Shown one piece after another: positions 3,801 to 58,195 of a stretch of 64,000 nt of DNA (its first letter is position 1; every line of letters begins with the position of its first letter). Source of the stretch: Eledone cirrhosa (taxonomy: Eukaryota); the NCBI GenBank assembly GCA_964016885.1, contig OZ024747.1:86614001-86678000 (forward strand), in the 5' to 3' direction. The position numbers and the translations under genes are program-made. Below the pieces are notes generated by a model, which had not been told where the DNA came from, ran no database searches, and was given only the letters and a program-made list of their open reading frames with translations.

Positions 3801-3999
3801 ATTATACACTAATAATTAACTGATATATATATATAGGTATTAGGATTGGTGCTCTGAAATAGCGACGTATACATGAATGTATGAGTATATTTGGCAACAT
3901 ACCGTATGTTTAATTAAAAACATTTAGAAGACCATACGCTATCGGTTTTAAAGTAGTGACTATGTCATTTACTTCTTTTCTGGCGAAGGAAGGGAGAGA

Positions 4000-4041
4000 A
4001 GCTAACAGTCTGTTTCACGCTGGTTGGCGATCATCAGAGCC
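4000..4041 (-). ncRNA. Minimal type I hammerhead ribozyme (family A)
   Basis: ggct CTGATGA t-cgc-caacca-gcg-t GAAA cagactg TT agct. Confidence 0.85.
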
Positions 4042-4333
4042 ACGCGCACCCTGCTTCCACCAAAATTTATAGAAGCTGGATTCTTCCAGTAATAATCAGG
4101 AGCTGATTATACAGTAAGTGACATAGTCACTACTTTAAAACCGATAGCGTATGGTCTTCAAATATACTATATATACATTCATGTATACATCGCTATTCGC
4201 TATTTCAGAGCACCAATTCTAATATCTAATTTTTGCTGGACTGGCAATCGCACTGTATAATCAGCTCCTGATTATTACTGGAATTCTATAAGAATCCAGC
4301 TTCTATAATTTTCGGTGGAAGCAGTGGGTGCGT

Positions 4334-4375
4334 GGCTCTGATGATCGCCAACCAGCGTGAAACAGACTGTTAGCT
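4334..4375 (+). ncRNA. Minimal type I hammerhead ribozyme (family A)
   Basis: ggct CTGATGA t-cgc-caacca-gcg-t GAAA cagactg TT agct; stem III is ACAG-A-CTGT, with a GUU site. Confidence 0.85.
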
Positions 4376-4502
4376 TCTCTCCTTTCTTTCGCCGAAAAGA
4401 AGTAAGTGACATTATCACTACTTTAAAACCGATAGCGTATGGTCTTCTAAATGTTTTTAATTAAACATACGGTATATTGCCAAATATACTATACATACAT
4501 TC

Positions 4503-4588: not shown

Positions 4589-5068
4589 GTGTGTATAATG
4601 GTAGCTATGGTGCTTCCATAGGCGGTATGCCAAAATTAGCACTCAATATTCTTACAGAGCAGAGTGTGAATAGTATAAAAAAACGAAAAATCAGTGATGC
4701 ATCTGGACTCAGTTTATTGCGTGTTACAATTGTTTTGCCGGCAGGTAGCTCGAGACATGATCACTGTATGGATCTGGATCTGGCTGATTCTACGGCTGCA
4801 GGTTCCTTCGGATACATGCAATTCTTTCGGAGCACCTTCAAAAAACATCTTCCACTCTTGTAATACCATTGGCATGAAGGTGTCTTTTGATGATAACACC
4901 CCAGTGAGAAAATTTGCTCCAAAAGAATTGCATGTGTCCGAAGGAACCTGCAGCCGTAGAATCAGCCAGATCCATACAGTGATCATGTCTCGAACTACCT
5001 GCCGGCGAAACAATTGTAATACGCAATAAACTGAGTCCACATGCATCACTGATTTTTCGTTTTTTTTA

Positions 5069-5074
<6 letters not shown>
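4587..5074. mobile_element. Fold-back element family Q in (TA)n with HHR-like motif (4934-5022, +)
   Basis: Arms 4670-4834 and 4915-5074, tail 4587-4669. Motif reads gtgt CCGAAGG..long stem II..GAAA caattg TA atac. Confidence 0.8.
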
Positions 5075-9180: not shown

Positions 9181-10360
9181 AAATGTGTGAGATCCTTAGT
9201 ACAGTTAGATATATTTGAAAAAAAGGAAAAGAATGACTTCACTTGTAGTGTTAAATAATTTGATTTAATTTTATAATATTATAATATTATGAGTTGGTAG
9301 ATTTAGTAAGTTCTTTGTTAACTTCGGTGGGAAGAATTTTAAAGATTCCTGGTTAACTTCGTTGGAGAACGTTCTCGCATTCGTCGGTGGCGATTGTCAA
9401 ACAGAGATCAGGTTTTATTGAGATGTGTGACTATATATAAGAGAGATTTGGATATGTCTGGGGTGTGGGGTGTGGTGTTAATGAGTGTTTATGAAGATTT
9501 GGAGGAATTAAAGCATACACGCACACACACACAGACATATATATATACACTCAGAAAATGGTGAGGTTGCAAGATAAGGGTGTTTGAGAAGGTGGTTGTA
9601 AACATCCCCTCCTGCTGGTTTTATTTCATTAGCTGACGTTTGATGAGTATATAATGGCAGGGTGATTTTCAAATTCGTTTCTTATAGCTGAATCAATTAT
9701 CTTAAATTTATAAAGAATATCTTCTACAAATTTCTATATCAAAGATGAATTTAGGTGCGTGTCTGGGTTTTAATGAGGGGTAAGATACATGTCTTTTGAT
9801 AAAGTCCCATGTATCTTACACCTCATTAAAACCCAGACACGCACCTAAATTCATCTTTGAAATAGAAATTTGTAGAAGATATTCTTTATAAATTTAAAAA
9901 TCACCCTGCCATTATATACTCATCAAAGGTCAGCTAATGAAATAAAACCAGCAGGAGGGGATGTTTACAACGACCTTCTCAAACACCCTTATCTTGCAGC
10001 CTCACCATTTTCTGAGTGTATATATATATGTGTGTGTGTGTATGTGTGTGTGTGTGTGCGTGTACATATGTGTGTGTATGCTTAAATTCCTCCAAATCTT
10101 CATAAACACTCATTAACACCACATCCACACCCCAGACACACCCAAATCTCTCATATATAGTCACACATCTTAACACAACCTAATCTCAGTTTGACAATCG
10201 CCACCGACGAATGCGAGAAAGTTCTCCAACCATAGTTAACCAAGAATCTTTAAAATTCTTCCCACCGAAGTTAACAAAGAACTTACTAAATCTACCTACT
10301 CATAATATTATAAAATTAAATCAAATTATTTAATACTACAAGTGAAGTCATTGTTTTCTT

Positions 10361-10368
<8 letters not shown>
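9176..10368. mobile_element. Large fold-back element family E (arms about 570 bp), possible Penelope-like fragment
   Basis: 9225-9791 is the reverse complement of 9808-10368, with (TA)n on both sides. A frameshifted HLIKT.H / FKIIDSA / NLKI..LY / NQQEG-like relic lies near the centre. Confidence 0.8.
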
Positions 10369-12569: not shown

Positions 12570-12825
12570 GGGTATCAAAAAATAAGTATGGTATTTATAC
12601 AAGTGGTAGGAGAGGGTGGGGAGTGGGATGGGTGTAGGTCATTGGTTGATAGAAAAGGGAATTCATTAAAAGCTAATTCTACAAAGCTATAGTTTATTTT
12701 TATTTTTATTTATTTTTGTTTTGAGAGTAACAAAGGCAGACAGAACTCTATAAACAGGTTCAGGATGGCATGCCATTCCTTATTATTAAGTTTCTCTTAA
12801 GCTAACAGGTGTCTATAAGATACCC

Positions 12826-12876
12826 AGATTCCTGATGATTTCTAAAGAATGAAACAGTTCTAGTCCTGTAGAATCT
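12826..12876 (+). ncRNA. Minimal type I hammerhead ribozyme (family B)
   Basis: agattc CTGATGA t-ttc-taaa-gaa-t GAAA cag-ttctagtc-ctg TA gaatct. Confidence 0.9.
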
Positions 12877-12888
12877 CATCTATATTAA

Positions 12889-13000
<112 letters not shown>

Positions 13001-13211
13001 AAAGATATGTGCGTATTGTTCATCATTCACCTATTTTAGCCAGTCTGTGAATTAGTTAGTGTCAATGAATTCTCAATCTATATCCTACTCCCGCGGCTTT
13101 GTCATAATTATGATCTTTTACTAATACGTCGTTGTCTCACACTATCTAGTCATATATCCGCTAACCAAATGCCACTCTTATCTTTCTCTCTCTTCGCAGC
13201 TATCTCTTTCC

Positions 13212-13278
<67 letters not shown>

Positions 13279-13466
13279 ATAAAGTATATATCCCTACACG
13301 CAAAAAGCGTCTAGGGACACATGTATTGTCCAACCATATGCCAATGTGATGTGGTTCAATGGCAGGTTAATAAATTAACGAGCCTGAACATATATAATGA
13401 AGGTTTAGCAAATAAGAAAAAGTTTCAAAATAAATTTTAAAAGATTCACTGTACTCACTATGGTTA

Positions 13467-13551
13467 CCTTTACCGAATCGGTTTCGAGTCTCAAAAATAA
13501 ATGGACAGTCCTTGCGGCCTTCCATTTCAAAGATAAACTCTCGTCAGAAGG
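13467..13551 (-). ncRNA. Type I hammerhead ribozyme with extended stem II (family P, element about 13275-13570)
   Basis: cctt CTGACGA gagt..aaatgga..tccattt..actc GAAA ccg-att-cgg TA aagg; all core positions are canonical. Confidence 0.9.
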
Positions 13552-13568
13552 GTCTTTTCACTAATCAA

Positions 13569-13627
<59 letters not shown>

Positions 13628-13632
<5 letters not shown>

Positions 13633-13822
13633 AGATTCAGGACTCCGACGGTTGAGCTCCGTTTCAACAGCTAGATCCGAACTATATCGGGTCTAGCTGT
13701 CGAAAAGGCCGGAGCTCAACCGTCGGAGTCCTGAATCTTTTCATATTACCCACTCTACTACCTCAAGTTTCGAGTACTCTGGTGGGGTATGGTCTAGCTG
13801 GTTTTTACCACACCCTATCTGA
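13628..13822 (+). mobile_element. HHR-element family C, palindrome centred on stem II
   Basis: Arms 13628-13680 and 13687-13745 around acagctagatccga-actata-tcgggtctagctgt; tail runs to 13822. Confidence 0.82.
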
Positions 13823-13837
13823 TATATATATATATAT

Positions 13838-14192
13838 AGATTCCCGAGTTGTGTCGGCGGGTAACCACAGAACCACAGTCTAAAAAAATCACTCAATATA
13901 TTAATAGAGTTTTGGCATTTTTAAAATTTTATATAGAAGTGTCCTCTACAGGACTAGAACTGTTTCATTTGAATAGAATCATCAGCAATGTAAATTCTCG
14001 ATGATTTTATACAAATGAAACAGTTCAAGTCTTGTAGATGTCATTTACTCTATTACCTACTCCAGCCACCCGGCCGATGTCATACTGGGTCAGGGCTCTA
14101 TATAAAATAAAACAAATACCTATACTCTACCAATGTATTGAATACCTTTTTAACTGTGGTTACACCCTCCCTGACATGACTCGCTAATCTAC

Positions 14193-14197
<5 letters not shown>
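13838..14197. mobile_element. Older head-to-head family B element with two degenerate HHRs (13943-13989 -, 13994-14040 +)
   Basis: GAAACAGTTC(T/A)AGTC(C/T)TGTAGA occurs on both strands, and both ends carry the CTGTGGTTAC tail. Confidence 0.75.
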
Positions 14198-14249
<52 letters not shown>

Positions 14250-15562
14250 ACACACACATACACACACGCACACACACACACATACACCCCCCTCCATATA
14301 TATATATAATGCTGAAAGCATACAAAAGTCTGTATCAACTAAACAAAGATTCATTTGCTTCGTCAAAATAATAAAACATTTTAAATCTAGATGTATGACC
14401 GCCCACCAACTATTATCTCTGACGTTTGAAATGGCGATATGTACTAGTTGAAATACTAGAATACCAAACTACAACTAATCTGCTTGAACAAGCATCGTTA
14501 AGTATGATATCGCAACCAAAAGCAACCCACGTGTTTAGTGTTGATCGATTATTAAAATAACATTTTAAACTTTAGCCTTATAAAATGAGTAGTTCGTAAG
14601 CAATCACTGTCGGCTACAAACATATGCTCTTGATATTTCTTAATTTCATTACAGGTGTTTAATAAATTCACAAACATTCTAGTGACTGGTGTGACGAACT
14701 TTAAAATGGATGAAGCAGTTATCGGCAGCTCATTGCTTAACCATTCCGAGCTATAACTACTACATTTGAATGTATAGACGGGATTATCTCACAATTACAA
14801 GTTATGAATGTATTTCGTTCAATCGACAGTCCATGCTACAGTCCCGTCTTACACTTCAGTTGCAAAGACAAATGGAATCAGACACATCAAAATCTAACAG
14901 GATGGCACATCACCACATTTTACAAATGCCAACACATAATTACCAATGAACCCATTTTGTTGACAGGTCCACTAGAGGAGACTCCGTATCGTTGGCATAC
15001 CAGCTTACCTGACTTAGCATAACTTGATCTTTATTGCTGAGACGTGGTAATAACATGGGTCTCCAAGCCGGGCAGGTCACAGAATCTTTGTTGAATCAAA
15101 GTTTAACGAGTGATTCCCGACAAAAATAGATAATGTCAATCAGAAGGAAATATTGGGTGCAGTGCAGGAACTCTTTTTACCGCTCTTAATATGTAAAGAA
15201 CTTAGAGTAATTGATTGGAAGAATTGGTAGAGCAACGGATGAAATGTCATTGCCGTATTTATTCTGGCTTTTTACATTCTGACTTCAAATCTCGTCGTTG
15301 TCATATTTTCATACTTCCGGTGTCGATAAGATTAGTGACAGTCAAATACTATGGTTGATTGAGTCAACTTTGCCCTTTGCCCCAAACTTTTCTGGCCTTG
15401 TAGTCCAATAAGAAATCAATATATAAATGATCTACATAGTGATAATTTTTAAAATATCCTGTAACATTCACTTTATTTAGTTATATGTTTGCCGGTATTT
15501 ATACTATTTAGTTTATTTGAATAATAAAATATTACCATTAATTTCCGTTGAAAAACACATCT

Positions 15563-15564
<2 letters not shown>

Positions 15565-15644
<80 letters not shown>

Positions 15645-15820
15645 ACATTCACACACACACACACACACACACGCACACACACACACACACACGCACACAC
15701 ACACAGACACAAACACACACACAAACACACACATACACACACACACACATATATACACACACCCACTCACATACACACACAAGTCTCCCACACACACATA
15801 TAGACAAACACACACTCACC
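15565..15820. repeat. (CA)n-rich compound microsatellite
   Basis: Directly visible; the source of several spurious ORFs. Confidence 0.95.
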
Positions 15821-16359
15821 CCCCTGCCAAACATATGATTATGTTTGATAGGTCTTGAGGTAAGGGCTGTGTCCATGACAATTGCAAGCCCTCCAAGACC
15901 TAAGAGACTGATGCTGTTGATGTTCATTTATTTATATATATATTCAAATTTTTGCAGGTAGAGTCCACAAGAAAAGCCACTCAGAGCTATAATTCTAGAC
16001 GGACGAGGTCCTGCGAGGAAAGAAGTGAATGTAGTGGTTAGTGAGGGGATTTGGGGACATAATTTGGGTGATGAATGGAGAAGAGACGAGAGGGCATAAG
16101 CATGCCTGCTCCTCTTTTGGTGATTTGGTGGAGATTTTAGGAAGTTGTGTTACCATGTAGACGTTTTCTCCGGGATGGGTGGAATCGGTAGAGTGGCCGA
16201 CGACATTCGGCGTTTTATTTTATTCGTTCAAATATTTTAGTAACCTCAAAGAGGTCAACTTGGCCTCTCATCTTTCGCGATTAAAGAAAATAAAGTATTA
16301 CTCGTGTATTGAAGGTGCTCGCCATAGTTAAGATATTGGGCTTACAAATTAAAACTTAC

Positions 16360-17341
16360 CTGAATAATTAGAATTTTCATCCCAGGCTGCCCACATCTGA
16401 CACACGAAAAAAGGTGACCAGCATATAAAATAGCAGGCAACTACACTTAAAGATAGAGCCACAGATCGCACTTTGGCCCGAGAAATTCCTCTGTTGTAAT
16501 TGACACTCTGTCCTTCCATATTCTCATCGGAAAAGCCTCGAGTTGAATTGTTTTGTCCAATACGAGTAGATACACGATTTGTGAGAAAGGTTCGATTTCG
16601 TATTCGGGAACTGCCCAAAGTAGAACGTGCTCTCTTCCACACAGCATAGCATATCATTCCATAAAACAGAGTAAGTGCTACTGTGGGTAAAATCCAAATT
16701 GCCACTGTTAACCAAGTGATGTAAAATTTTAAAGTCCATTCGGGGTTAAAGGTCGCCCGGCAAGTGAGACCAATACACGTGTATTTCATGCTCCATATGA
16801 AAAACTGTGGAATACTGAATAGAAACGATAGTACCCACGCAATGAAAACCATAACATGCACCCTGGCAGTTGTCCACTTGTGACTGGATAAAGGGTGACA
16901 TATGGCAAAATAACGGTCAATGGCTGTTGCCACAAGGACATAGCTGGATGCATATACAGCTACACTTTGTAGATAAGTGATAACGCGGCAAAGTAAATCA
17001 GTGCCGAGAAATAAGGACGTAATGTCCCAAATCATTTGAGGTAGGTTGTTAAAGAAGGCGACGAAGAGGTCAGTCAAAGACAGGTGCAAAATAAACAGAT
17101 GCATGCGAGTCAATTTTTTTCTCTGCTTGAACAACGTTATTAGAACAACGCTGTTACCTAAGACAGTAACTATGATTAAGGTGGCCAGGGTAATAATTTC
17201 GGCATTAGCGAGCGCTTCGTCACGTTGCAGCAGTTGAGTTTCATTCTTTGTCTCGGAGAAATTATTCCATATTTCCGTCGACGAAAAATTATTCCATATT
17301 TGCGTCGAGAGTTCATTTGGGTTTGTAGTGATGTCTATCAT
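16360..17341 (-). CDS. CTR1: Vasopressin/oxytocin-family class A GPCR, cephalotocin receptor 1-like; first coding exon (TM1-TM6)
   Basis: Contains GNSVV (TM1), RMHLFILHLSLTDLFVAFF..LPQMIWDIT (TM2), ASSYVLVATAIDRYFAICHPL (TM3), ISRAKVRSV and CWSPFFVCQMWAAWD (TM6), plus N-terminal NFS glycosylation sites. It is very similar to the O. vulgaris CTR1 sequence as I recall it. The exon ends at CAG|GTAAGT (GT at 16359-16358), the intron position typical of this receptor family. Confidence 0.93.
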
Positions 17342-17467
17342 AGCTGTTACTTTGATTTTTGTTGAAGAAAATATATACTGAATTGGAAAGTATTAGTAAA
17401 TAAACGTATCCTTTTTTATTAGTAAATTCGATTGTAAACAGAGTATTGCCAGTTAAATTAGCCACAG

Positions 17468-27899: not shown

Positions 27900-28274
27900 C
27901 TTTTCCGCTCTTTCACTTTTTTCTTATTTTTCTTATTTTCTTTCTATACTATATTCTGCTTGTGTTTATTTCTTCATTCTTTTGCTCAGTTTCCTATCCT
28001 ATATTTTCCTCTTCCTTTCCACATATCTAAAATAGAAACACCGATAATCTTATACATTTAAATATGAACTGATATATTTATTTTCTTCTTCTTTATGTAT
28101 GGTATGTAGTGTCACACTGCATACTCAGAGAGGAGAGAGCAGTGTGACAACACGCTGGCTGGTTCCTCTCTGAGTCAAAAACATAAACACACATGTTTAC
28201 TCTCTTTTTTTCTGTGCTTTTCCTTAAAGTCTATCACCATTCCGTTGGTATGCATCTATTACGGAACTTACACC

Positions 28275-28330
28275 CAGCTGAAGATGTCACCGGGTTCTTA
28301 CACAACCTGGTCACTGAAATGTGCATAGTG
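28275..28330 (+). ncRNA. Type I hammerhead ribozyme (family M), one stem I mismatch
   Basis: cag CTGAAGA t-gt-c-accgggtt-cttacac-aacctggt-c-ac-t GAAA tgtgca TA gtg. Confidence 0.72.
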
Positions 28331-28563
28331 TTTGCATGAATAAAAAATGAAGGAAATTCAACATATTTGGCTTCCTGTCACTTCACTTTATAATATATAT
28401 ACATGTATATAGATGTGTGTGTGGGGGGGGGGGGGGGGGTGAGAGAGAGAGAGAGATATATATATATAGAGAGAGAGTCTTGGGTTCAATCATAACTAAT
28501 TAAGAAGCTATTTTCGCCTATTGATTTTCCAGGTTCAAAACACACATACACACATATAAATAT

Positions 28564-31597: not shown

Positions 31598-31898
31598 AAA
31601 AAGATGAAATCGAAAATGCAACTGGAGTCTTATTTTAAAAATATATATATATTTATTTGGTTCCTTTACCGGTTTCGCAGTTCTTCTGCTTTTCAAAAGT
31701 AGAGTTGAGATGGAGGGTCTGTGGTTTTTCTCACATCTGTGAGAAAAACCACAGACCCTCCATCTCAAGGAACCAAATAAATATGTATATTTTTAAAAAA
31801 TAAGACTCCAGTTGCATTTTCGATTTCATCTTTTTTCTTTATACTTTCACTCGTGTAGGACACCTCGGTTATTTTTCATTTTGTAAAAAAAACCTCAC

Positions 31899-31905: not shown

Positions 31906-33002
<1,097 letters not shown>

Positions 33003-35452: not shown

Positions 35453-36795
35453 ATCATCATCATCATCTGGTGCCATGTCTGTTCCAGATATCGGCGATTC
35501 CACAAAGAATCAACTTCACCAAACTGTATCTTCTGTTTATCTGGCCAAATCACTACAATTGCCTCTTTCTAATAGGACGAACAAGAAATCTTTCCATGCA
35601 GCCCTATCTGAAACCTCTTCGATTCATTTTGAGATGGCTGATCTCGCTATCTATTCTTATAGCAACCTCTTGTCCCCAATATAAATTTGGAAGGACTCGC
35701 TGGTCTTCGCCATCTACATGTAATTCTTGGAGTATACTGAATAGATCATGTCTCACTTTGTCAAACGCTTTTGAATAGTCTATGAAGCATAAACAGATGT
35801 CCTTTTGAACTTCGATTGATCTTTCTAATACCGTGGATAGGGAGAAGTTGGCGTTTTCTAGTGCTCTTGTTCGGAACAAAACTGAATTGGGTATCTGATA
35901 TTTCCGAGTAAATTTTTCTCTCAATTTTTTTCTTGAGAATGCAGAGGAGAAATTTTGTTATGTAACTCATACAACTAATTGTTTTGTTTCGGTCACACTC
36001 CGTGGTCCTGGGCTTCTTTAATGTCCTGGAGGAGTACTCCACAGTCATATATGATGTTAAACAATTTCGTAAGTTCAGCAATTCCTATTTCAACTAGGAC
36101 CTCCAGTAACTTGGTTGTTATTTGATCTGAACCCAATGCCTTGCTACCCTTCATTTTATTCAGTGCTTTATGTGCTTCATTCTTGAGAATTGGTGGATCT
36201 TCAAAGTTTTATTTCTTATCTGGGGTGGGGTTGGGGTTGCGTTTATCATAAAATAGTTCTAAATATTCCAGCCATCTCTTCAAAATATTACTTTTGTGCA
36301 TAAGAATGTTTCCGCCTTTTGCTTTTATGCAGCCTATTTTTGAAGACGATTTTCTTCCGGAAATCTCTTTCATTTATTCATGCCTGTATTTGCTGTCATC
36401 CCCGTTATAGCATTCGATTACTATGAACTGTTCGTTAATCCAAAATAATTTGTTGCATTCGTTCTTAATGTTTTTACCTAATTCGCGATAACTCTGTTGT
36501 TTTGTTTTTTCACTTTCCGCCATTGCTCGTTGAAATCTCAGATATCCTGAGTCATCTATGTTTTATGGTCTTTCCGCCATGTAGTTTTCTGAATGTCTTC
36601 TTTTGCCGATTTTTGAATGCATTCTTTCATGTTCTTTCATATCTCTTCAATATTTATAAAATAGTCCAGAGCGTTAAAAGTATTCCTGACACAAATGGAA
36701 TATTTTAGTTTTACATCTCCATTTTCCTTCAAAAGGTTGTATTGGAGTTTATGTTGGAATTTGGATCTGCTGGTCTTTATCAGTCTTAGATTCAT
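35453..36795 (-). mobile_element. RTE-clade LINE relic (RT region, internally deleted)
   Basis: ERSIEVQKDICLCFIDYSKAFDKVRH, LYWGQEVAIRIDSEIS and TISCMSYITKFLLCIL; (TGA)n 3' tail. Confidence 0.88.
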
Positions 36796-36809
36796 ACTAC
36801 TACAATAAT

Positions 36810-37710
36810 AATTATTAATTCTTTATTGCCCACTAGAACCGAAACATGTAGGGCCGTACAAAAGAGAGGAACAGTGGGATCAAAACTTGTAAAAAAGATA
36901 AGAGATAACAATAGAGAATATAATTATAACAATAAAAATTCCCCTAATTGGGGAAGAGTACCACCCAGGGATGATTTATGAACCCTACCGATCCTAAACC
37001 ACTTTACTCTTCAAGAGGACCCGAGGAGGCCGTTCCTCTCCTCTTTAAACTCTCCAACATACATGTGCACGGTTAGAGTAGGCCCGTTCACTTGGACTAT
37101 CTTCGCTATTTCACTGACCTTTGAATAAATGTATTGGGAAGTAGCACCTCCCTCACCACCCTCATCTTCCTTTCCAAGTGGAACTTGAAAAAGTTGAGGA
37201 AGAATTGGTGGAAGAGAAACGTGTCTGTCTTCAGTCCTTTCAGCTACGTCTACTACACAAACTCTTTTGCTACAACGACAAGACAGTGGAAAATTGCATG
37301 CACTTCTCAGCCCCCAAACGTGTGTGTGTGTGGGGTGGGTGGGTGGGGGTGGGTGGGTGGGTGGGGGGGGGGGGGGGGGGGGGAAATGTTCATGATGGAC
37401 TCGGTCGATAGGTGAATCCGTCCTAAACGCAATAAGAGTTATTCAACAGTTAGCAGTGACTCACACTGGACGAGTGCGTGCAGAACAGTTTCATCGCCAT
37501 ACGCGCATCATGGTCATGTCCGTCTGACAGCACTTTCGTACCTGTAGAGTTCGTCTCGAACTGGCAGTGACCCCCCCCCCCAGTTATTTCTGGAAGTTGT
37601 CCATAGCACCCGGTTCCAAATCCTGGAACCGAGTGCTATTCCGAACAGACTGATAAGTTCGATTTCATCGACGCTCAGAGCCTCACCGAGGACGTCGTCA
37701 CACTTGTTGT
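36810..37710 (-). mobile_element. L1/Tx1-like LINE ORF2 3' relic
   Basis: Minus strand gives NFQK, GSLPVRDELYRY and DETVLHALVQC (zf-RVT/CCHC-like), with frameshifts. Confidence 0.7.
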
Positions 37711-38161
37711 TTCTCTGTTGCTACCTTGATGCGACAACCGTCGTTTTCGTGATTGTTGTTGTTGTTGACGGTGGCCTTGTTGGTGATGTCTATGGTGATG
37801 TTGATGATAGTGGTGGTGGTAGTGTCACTATTGTCATCATTTGCACTCCAGTCCCAGGCGCTGTCACGTGACATGAACTTCTCGCTGCTGAATTTGGAAA
37901 GAGGTGTCGCCTCAATTTTGACGAAAAATGATGGTGTAGATTACAATTTGTAAAGTTCGAAGATTTGGGCCAAAGGCACACATATTATGGGGTCGCCTCT
38001 CTTCAGAGCAAAGACTGATGCTATGTATCCACTTTCTAACATAAAAAAGTATAGCAAATAACGATTTAAACGTGGGTAAATTACAAACACATGGGCACTT
38101 ACAACAACACTTCTGAACAAACCAATAACAACAGTAACAATAATAATACCACCACCACCAC

Positions 38162-44844: not shown

Positions 44845-44953
44845 AATCCTTCCTGGCTTTAGAAATGGTAGAGGGACAACGGACATGATCTTTACGCTGA
44901 GACAGCTGCAAGGTGTTTATCGATCTGACAAAGGCTTTTGATACAGTCAATAG
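44845..44953 (+). mobile_element. LINE RT fragment
   Basis: DMIFTLRQLQ / VFIDLTKAFDTVN. Confidence 0.7.
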
Positions 44954-44993
44954 TATCAGTTGATTCAGTCCTTGATGAAAATCAAGCTGACTG

Positions 44994-45416
44994 CTACACA
45001 ACAGATATCCTTAATTCTCTTGAGCCACATGGAACTCCTACACATAAACTTTTCCTGAAGGTTGGCGTCCCAATAATGCTTCTAAGATCCTCCTAAATTA
45101 TGCAATCGGACAAGGTTTATTGTGAAGACATTACCACCTAATGTGATAGAAGCTACCATCATCACTGGGTGTGCCTCAGGGGAAGATATCAAACCAACAG
45201 ACATGCCATTTGAGTTCAAACGAACACAATTCCCAGTGCGACTTTGCTTTGCAATATCTATCAATAAAGCTGGAGGTCAGACTGAAATCTACTGGCTTGC
45301 ACTTAAGTTAGCCTCGTTTTTCTCATTGTCAACTTTACGTTGGCTGTTCCAGAATGGGTAGTTTACAAGACTTACTTGTATATGCTCAAAACCAGAAAAC
45401 AAAGAATACCGTTTAC
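44994..45416 (+). pseudogene. Helitron RepHel PIF1-type helicase C-terminal relic
   Basis: LNSLEPHGTPTHKLFLKVGVPIMLLR / PPKLCNRTR..NVIEATIITG..PTDMPFEFKRTQFPVRLCFAISINKAGGQT / FSHCQLYVGCSR; frameshifted. Confidence 0.9.
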
Positions 45417-55377: not shown

Positions 55378-55560
55378 AAAAAAAAAAGAAAATGAGGGGG
55401 ATTTTTAAATGAAAACAAAACTAGATATCGTACACGAGTGAAAGTATAAGGAAAAGAAATCGAAAATCCAACTGGAGTCTTTTTAAGAATATTTATTTAA
55501 GAAACAAATATATATTCTTAAAAAGACTCCAGTTGCACTTTCGATTTCTTTTCCTTATAT
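55378..55560. mobile_element. Family N fold-back lacking the HHR
   Basis: AAATCGAAAAT(C/G)CAACTGGAGTCTT arms match 31608-31632. Confidence 0.78.
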
Positions 55561-57746: not shown

Positions 57747-58195
57747 CAATATATTAACAAATGGAAACTATATTTATAAAACCATATTTATTTCATTATA
57801 CATATTTCAAGGGCCACCAAGGCAAACTATGGTGCGCTTTCATCAGATAAAATATAATATAGGTTAGTTTTATAAATAAATATTGACATACCCTGACAAA
57901 ATGCAACCATTCTGGTTGGAATCTCCTGCAGATTCCAACCAGAATGGTTGCATTTTGTCAGGGTATGTTAATATTTATTTATAAAACTAACCTATATTAT
58001 ATTTTATCTGATGAAAGCGCACCATAGTTTGCCTTGGTGGCCCTTGAAATATGTATAATGAAATAAATATGGTTTTATAAATATAGTTTCCATTTGTTAA
58101 TATATTGTATATTTACTCCAATAATTTGTTGAGTGCTTTATATCAGTTATAAAAATATTTTGCTTGTTGTATCCCAACAAATTAAATATAACCTC
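57747..58195. mobile_element. HHR-element family D, near-perfect palindrome; HHRs at 57789-57854 (-) and 58000-58065 (+)
   Basis: Arms 57747-57924 and 57930-58107 with a 5-nt spacer; tail to 58195. Confidence 0.92.

Follow-up and report, generated by a model that had tools for sequence, protein, structure and literature searches.

Results

Genomic setting and features of the locus

The window (the whole 64-kb stretch of DNA that was analysed) is AT-rich and microsatellite-rich animal DNA. It contains a large coding exon of a vasopressin/oxytocin-type GPCR on the minus strand (16352–17392; Pfam 7tm_1, E = 3e-39; V1a receptor, E = 5e-67), broken LINE-like fragments on the same strand (35607–36822, with a weak RVT_1 match at 35607–35957, E = 0.0055, below the family cut-off) and, on the plus strand, a Pif1 helicase fragment that is probably a Helitron remnant (44929–45358; Pif1_2B_dom, E = 2e-8). 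A GC-richer stretch at 37453–37940 holds several open frames of 60–107 codons, with no Pfam match in the three scanned. The 64 kb also hold 25 local inverted repeats. Long perfect stems in the window reach 15, 24, 30 and 39 bp, whereas shuffled sequences average at most 0.02 stems of at least 15 bp, an excess indicating that this DNA is subject to active processes generating inverted repeats. Additional fold-back palindromes, large or perfect, lie at 4673–5071, 9219–10365, 32095–32903, 31705–31768 and 55469–55535.

The features of the locus under study are as follows.

28095–28109, no strand: TATG-like low-complexity 5′ flank, overlapping P0
28102–28124, plus: P0, a second fold-back that overlaps the S1 5′ arm (−11.2 kcal/mol, z = −3.2); likely the second snap-back product
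28110–28120, plus: S1 5′ arm, an inverted copy of 28139–28149 just outside the repeat boundary (summed depth 3.7/0/0); likely the first snap-back product
28123–28134, plus: S2 5′ arm; other copies align from 28124–28128 onward
28123–28175, plus: imperfectly palindromic 53-nt rod hairpin with which the repeat begins at its 5′ end (−32.9 kcal/mol, z = −5.65), most of it covered by three contig groups
28124–28395, plus: diverged interspersed repeat copy, from contig alignment (~273 nt if its start is 28123); likely a solo Penelope-like element pseudo-LTR
28139–28149, plus: S1 3′ arm; its partner in the lowest-energy fold is 28150–28161 inside the rod, not the S1 5′ arm
28164–28175, plus: S2 3′ arm, with no difference among the 40 variant rows listed of 146
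28270–28331, plus: damaged type I hammerhead, found by the descriptor scan only if four extra letters were allowed before the core
28274–28277, plus: 4-nt insertion separating helix I from the catalytic core; many other copies lack it
28393–28421, no strand: (TA)n/(TG)n microsatellite at the 3′ junction, where other copies instead continue with an AC-rich extension

Two perfect stems in crossed order

S1 joins 28110–28120 to 28139–28149 (11 bp) and S2 joins 28123–28134 to 28164–28175 (12 bp). Both stems are GC-balanced and 100% complementary, at exactly the positions given in the first-pass annotation, and they stand in crossed order, the two-helix arrangement of an H-type pseudoknot, with loops of 2, 4 and 14 nt. 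When we scanned for perfect stems with loops of 3–40 nt and a span of at most 90 nt, excluding low-complexity arms, S1 and S2 were the sole crossed pair in the 64-kb window with both stems of at least 10 bp. Across 580 block-wise dinucleotide shuffles, the mean number of crossed pairs was 0.031 at a minimum of 10 bp and 0.0017 at a minimum of 11 bp, the latter being a single pair in 580 shuffled windows. The pair is therefore not explained by chance, as the annotation had also held.

Two helices absent from that annotation complete the picture. P0 (28102–28111 with 28115–28124; nine Watson–Crick pairs and one G–T pair, 3-nt loop) overlaps the S1 5′ arm, and in an inner helix the S1 3′ arm pairs with ‘loop 3’ of the supposed pseudoknot. 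All 46 stem letters of S1 and S2 are still perfectly paired in a copy that is ~13% diverged, a degree of preservation that is somewhat surprising under neutrality, even when selection by the stem finder is taken into account.

The stems lie at the 5′ edge of an abundant repeat

We aligned assembled contigs of the same organism, from three runs (X1–X3) of one sample, to 27900–28400 at 80% likeness, obtaining 721, 711 and 696 aligned contigs in X1, X2 and X3, respectively, most of them 80–95% alike. The stretch 28124–28395 clearly belongs to an abundant repeat, of which it is a diverged copy. Summed depth (X1/X2/X3) was ~4 or zero over 27968–28018, 3.7/0/0 over 28104–28120, where the coverage comes from the window’s own contig only, 43/42/30 over 28121–28137 and 568/357/461 over 28172–28188; it reached 12,800–15,800 over 28308–28324, depth not being equal to copy number. 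Leftward, depth drops about two- to threefold per 17-nt bin, such that few contigs are expected at 28104–28120 even with the element continuing. Among the 24 pieces listed of 2,160, the leftmost other copies start at 28124, 28127 and 28128, with 222–699 unaligned letters upstream; these starts recur in all three runs and were therefore counted as three loci. Further copies in the same 24 start at 28141, 28148, 28154, 28167 and 28169. Divergence from other copies is ~13% (18–21 differences in 133–154 letters). In the three runs of this one sample, zero other contigs cover the S1 5′ arm, in local alignments that clip ends.

Single contigs cross both the hairpin and the hammerhead regions (for example, 28141–28378 and 28148–28362), and the two are therefore parts of one element, which bears out the earlier assignment of the stems to the same element as the ribozyme. 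One X3 contig switches strand from 28148 to 28219, a 5′ inversion in another copy. Behind 28395, loose ends with the AC-rich extension were found in 13/12/16 contigs (median 45/55/22 letters), and in X2 and X3 a 29-letter AC-rich piece after 28395 is followed by a return to 28355, that is, a tail and a partial tandem. Within the 64-kb window, blastn and nhmmer found no other copy of 28124–28395 (best other nhmmer E = 0.27), and scans of a metagenome collection returned zero matches to the S1–S2 pattern and zero to the hammerhead pattern. Viral collection scans gave one match per pattern, neither extending beyond the pattern itself, and we treated both as chance. The viral match to the S2 pattern (contig L001, 501–543) is an inverted repeat flanked by near-tandem GC-rich units and is otherwise unlike the window.

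The rod hairpin is shared and the crossed fold is not favoured

S2 forms the 12-bp base of the rod, which has ~22 pairs and is predicted to be more stable on the plus than on the minus strand (−32.9 versus −28.3 kcal/mol). Among the 40 variant rows listed of 146, in which rows at contig ends may be under-represented, five fall in 28121–28192, all in loop 3 and none in the stem arms; they amount to four places and a second allele at one of them. We refolded the rod with the commonest other allele at 28153, 28158, 28159 and 28161, omitting two minor rows; the 28159 allele accounts for just below half of the depth. Of the single-allele refolds, three stabilise the rod (−34.8, −33.7 and −37.9 kcal/mol) and that at 28153 weakens it (−30.4 kcal/mol). 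All four alleles jointly give −35.4 kcal/mol, a value equalled or beaten by 7 of 81 letter choices at the same places and by 95 of 3,000 random four-letter changes in loop 3. These modelled energies lend modest support to the rod as the fold of the family.

For the locus as a whole, the lowest-energy fold is nested and comprises P0 and the rod (−41.8 kcal/mol), versus −28.0 kcal/mol for the best fold forced to contain S1, which lies ~14 kcal/mol higher. The pair probability of S1 is 0.0 on both strands in the nested ensemble, a model that cannot score pseudoknots. We made a rough estimate for S1 and S2 together by adding loop penalties from the Dirks–Pierce model to the two stacking energies (−47.5 kcal/mol); at −35.5 kcal/mol, the crossed fold is still ~6 kcal/mol above the nested one, in a calculation that ignores the problem of the 2-nt loop. 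It is doubtful that a 2-nt loop 1 can span a 12-bp helix. If transcribed, the locus is predicted to fold as two adjacent hairpins. The first-pass annotation had proposed an H-type pseudoknot or a two-state switch; with the S1 5′ arm in no other contig, an S1 probability of 0.0 and a more stable nested fold, neither a working pseudoknot nor a family-wide switch is supported.

Other RNA classes were also considered. By eye, SECIS elements, HDV-type ribozymes, and readthrough and antizyme pseudoknots were rejected on their familiar motifs, there being no non-canonical core, nested P3 or leading-in frame. Rfam gave zero gathering-level matches in the window and nine weak matches up to E = 10, mostly generic miRNA hairpins and none a hammerhead; a microRNA precursor was rejected at a best score of 21.8 bits versus a gathering score of 70. 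A protein-coding reading was likewise set aside, as a 72-codon frame at 28110–28325 and three other frames over the repeat have no Pfam match.

A damaged hammerhead downstream

The hammerhead consists of helix I (28270–28273 with 28328–28331), the core at 28278–28284 with an extra U, helix II (28286–28314), GAAA (28316–28319) and a near-palindromic helix III (28319–28326), with the cut predicted after 28327. The core CUGANGA with its extra nucleotide (28278–28285), the GAAA and an NUH triplet (28325–28327) are all present. Three departures mark this copy. Helix I does not directly adjoin the core, from which it is separated by the 4-nt insertion; exactly these four letters are lacking in 8/9/2 contigs (X1/X2/X3), and in 53/53/46 contigs a loose end before 28278 ends in helix I letters. 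The G10.1–C11.1 pair is absent, with a T at 28315, a place that does not occur among the variant rows listed for other copies. Finally, helix III is one transition short of a palindrome, presumably through CpG decay.

Alleles in other copies affect the helices in different ways. At 28264, the common allele (524 of 607 depth in X1) would, by eye, pair with G28334 and lengthen helix I. In helix II, pairing would survive the alleles at 28292 and 28307 given an unaltered partner, and a pair would be lost with the alleles at 28295 and 28311 (the latter with most of the depth) in the absence of a compensating change. The minimal hammerhead consensus described for metazoan Penelope-like elements (PLEs) has CUGANGA and an extra nucleotide, a long helix II and a short helix I (PMC4209133). 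Given the fit to this consensus except for the insertion, the T for C11.1 and the helix III transition, the motif is probably a real family ribozyme, predicted to be inactive in this copy.

The window holds several other hammerhead-like repeats, and other repeats with a hammerhead core form five pairs in head-to-head orientation. A second type I family is better preserved and has seven copies (18652−, 20170+, 49947−, 51240+, 54921−, 57846− and 58008+), with an 8-bp helix I and, in five of the seven, an AT palindrome in helix III; six of the copies are arranged head to head as three pairs, and 57747–58107 is a 98.6% palindrome with a 5-nt loop. A third hammerhead-like family forms a head-to-head palindrome (4037−/4338+, within 3873–4500). 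A further repeat family carries a hammerhead-core-like motif with a very short helix II (12563−, 12832+, 13985−, 30933+, 56320− and 56408−); it did not pass the hammerhead descriptor, and its 12563 and 12832 copies are head to head.

Identity of the repeat

The hammerhead, the optional 29-nt 3′ extension, the staggered 5′ ends and the one 5′ strand switch fit a solo PLE pseudo-LTR (pLTR), and, judged from these sequence traits, the repeat is likely to be one. Contig alignment shows it to be interspersed and multi-copy with staggered 5′ ends; the 29-letter piece after 28395 in X2 and X3 corresponds to the optional 30–40-nt tail; and the 53-nt rod, with the strand switch at 28148 in the one X3 contig, corresponds to the palindrome or inverted 5′ piece. 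No PLE reading frame is tied to the family, the four frames over the repeat having no Pfam match. Inverted 5′ copies are described as typical of PLEs, and 30–40-bp tails are also described (PMC8557442); rotifer PLE pLTRs are reported to carry 5′-terminal palindromes of 18 and 38 bp and a 31-bp tail, together with a model of self-priming (PMC3846280). By analogy, the rod would most likely be the self-priming palindrome of the kind described at pLTR 5′ ends.

Discussion

Origin of the crossed stems

We favour, with moderate confidence, a reading in which the crossed stems are an overlay of two things: S2, the base of a hairpin shared by the family, and the S1 5′ arm, a copy-specific snap-back scar at the 5′ edge of a decayed repeat. 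The stretch 28102–28122 is almost wholly two nested inverted copies of adjoining sequence, and of the P0 letters outside S1, seven of eight match their partner; in the window, 42 of 127,984 places show such a match. During insertion, first-strand cDNA would have reached its 5′ end near 28123, folded back near 28139 and copied ~11 nt, yielding the S1 5′ arm; a second fold-back over a 3-nt loop would have copied ~8 more nt, yielding P0; and the snap-back product would then have been joined to the TATG-like flank, the copy decaying afterwards into one whose hammerhead is predicted to be inactive. We infer this order of events from the bottom-strand reading of 28102–28123. By eye, neither microhomology nor a target-site duplication is clear in the low-complexity flanks, and target-site duplications are described as not always present (PMC3846280). 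Snap-back of cDNA at 5′ junctions is a measured category for R2 protein insertions, often after full-length cDNA (PMC11371274), and snap-back repair synthesis (SD-MMEJ) from short inverted primers makes new inverted repeats beside breaks (PMC5728401). The first-pass annotation had held that stems not conserved in other copies would point to local micro-inversions; this appears to apply to S1, whose 5′ arm is in no other contig, and not to S2, which other contigs cover.

A related process could have acted later: 28102–28122 may postdate insertion and stem from replication template switching or polymerase-theta-type repair at the hairpin base, with no RNA function. SD-MMEJ-like synthesis would yield such repeats near breaks (PMC5728401), a late origin would explain a perfect S1 in a ~13% diverged copy, and the window has an excess of long perfect stems (15–39 bp, with shuffles averaging at most 0.02 at 15 bp or more). 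However, the insert lies within 1–5 letters of the alignment stops in three contig groups, which points to an insertion junction, and P0 already bears one transition and hence is not brand new. We consider a post-insertion origin unlikely.

Alternatively, S1 could be true element sequence preserved in the longest copy, the family RNA alternating between P0 with the rod and either an S1 fold or a threaded S1–S2 knot, as a means, for instance, of regulating hammerhead cleavage or self-priming. In favour of this, the stems are GC-balanced and free of mismatches, an alternative partner exists for either arm of S1 (P0 or the inner helix of the rod), as in a switch, and the decay of depth does not strictly exclude a rare longest copy; interleaved helices of at least 10 bp in crossed order, which need threading, have been named prime RNA knot candidates (PMC4829277). 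Set against this are the confinement of the S1 5′ arm to this contig in all three runs, energies of ~14 kcal/mol (S1 state) and ~6 kcal/mol (rough pseudoknot) above the nested fold, a 2-nt loop 1 that would have to span a 12-bp helix, and the low-complexity flank beyond P0, and we regard this possibility as quite improbable. A four-helix module upstream of a PLE hammerhead, with two interleaved stems competing against two hairpins to gate self-priming or cleavage and the window holding the lone copy long enough to show it, seems just as doubtful. If true, either would bear on how PLE RNA controls priming or cleavage, and on the existence of natural RNA knots. In the titles and abstract openings of the literature searched, we found no pseudoknot upstream of a hammerhead in a pLTR, which is no proof of absence.

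It is very unlikely that the repeat is instead a non-LTR retrozyme monomer or another non-autonomous hammerhead SINE, with the rod as part of a self-paired circular RNA. A size of ~270–300 nt and a type I hammerhead do fit retrozyme units of 150–450 bp, the U–U mismatch at the base of helix II has an axolotl retrozyme precedent (PMC7229834), and a preprint makes the case for a pLTR origin of retrozymes (10.64898/2026.07.22.740005). Yet the five joints and two extension rows listed, from contigs that are short, include no joint of a 3′ end to a 5′ end; in each run, only one or two contigs can be placed twice; no second unit appears in contigs that extend as far as 699 letters upstream; and both the tail and the extra U behind the core are traits of PLEs. 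Co-option by the vasopressin/oxytocin-type receptor gene, as its cis-regulatory element in RNA or DNA form, is scarcely credible: the receptor exon (16352–17392, minus strand, coding exon start ~10.7 kb away) is in the window, the stems are intact while the hammerhead has decayed and the heptamer at 28171–28177 is AP-1-like, but G–U pairing makes the plus-strand fold the more stable (−32.9 versus −28.3 kcal/mol), the gene lying on the other strand, and repeats of this kind are common in the window.

Under the favoured reading of a hairpin overlaid by a snap-back scar, the pseudoknot is probably an accident of the 5′ junction on a decayed PLE-type pLTR, an ordinary jumping-gene remnant rather than a working pseudoknot. 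As one more decayed hammerhead-bearing repeat, it would then matter little in itself; it would also document compactly, in genomic DNA, two snap-back rounds in succession at a PLE-type 5′ junction, and serve as a warning that scars of this sort look like perfect pseudoknots when repeat-rich animal DNA is scanned.

Comparison with known systems

The locus resembles H-type pseudoknots and the X–Y–X′–Y′ knot candidates (PMC4829277) in its crossed order and in helices of 11 and 12 bp; unlike these, it has a 2-nt loop 1, a more stable nested alternative and an S1 5′ arm that no other contig covers. Its likeness to R2 snap-back junctions (PMC11371274) and SD-MMEJ products (PMC5728401) lies in a short antisense stretch, copied from nearby element sequence, that separates the 5′ end of the element from the flank, whereas here the process is read from one old genomic copy, in two nested rounds.

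The hammerhead is like the minimal PLE hammerheads (Cervera and de la Pena 2014, PMC4209133) in its CUGANGA core with an extra nucleotide, long helix II and short helix I, as well as in its short, near-palindromic helix III and its U-rich 5′ and AU-rich 3′ flanks. It differs from their consensus in the four extra letters before the core, the T for C11.1 and a helix III one transition off a palindrome.

The repeat as a whole compares with the pseudo-LTRs of endonuclease-containing PLEs, namely Pen2 and Pen3 of Adineta vaga (PMC3846280) and PAc of Anolis (PMC11167929). Unlike in those elements, no RT/GIY-YIG frame is linked to it, the inverted piece is only 11–21 nt and doubly folded, and the hammerhead is damaged. 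In common with them, it has a unit of ~200–270 nt, a palindrome at the 5′ end, an internal type I hammerhead and an optional tail of ~30 nt, together with inverted 5′ pieces, a partial tandem and an AT-rich or microsatellite target. PAc reverse transcription starts 111–118 nt into an ORF that begins at stem II (PMC11167929). This copy ends 112 nt past the ATG at the start of helix II, and its frame from that ATG stops at 28326–28328; the likeness in distance to PAc is suggestive only.
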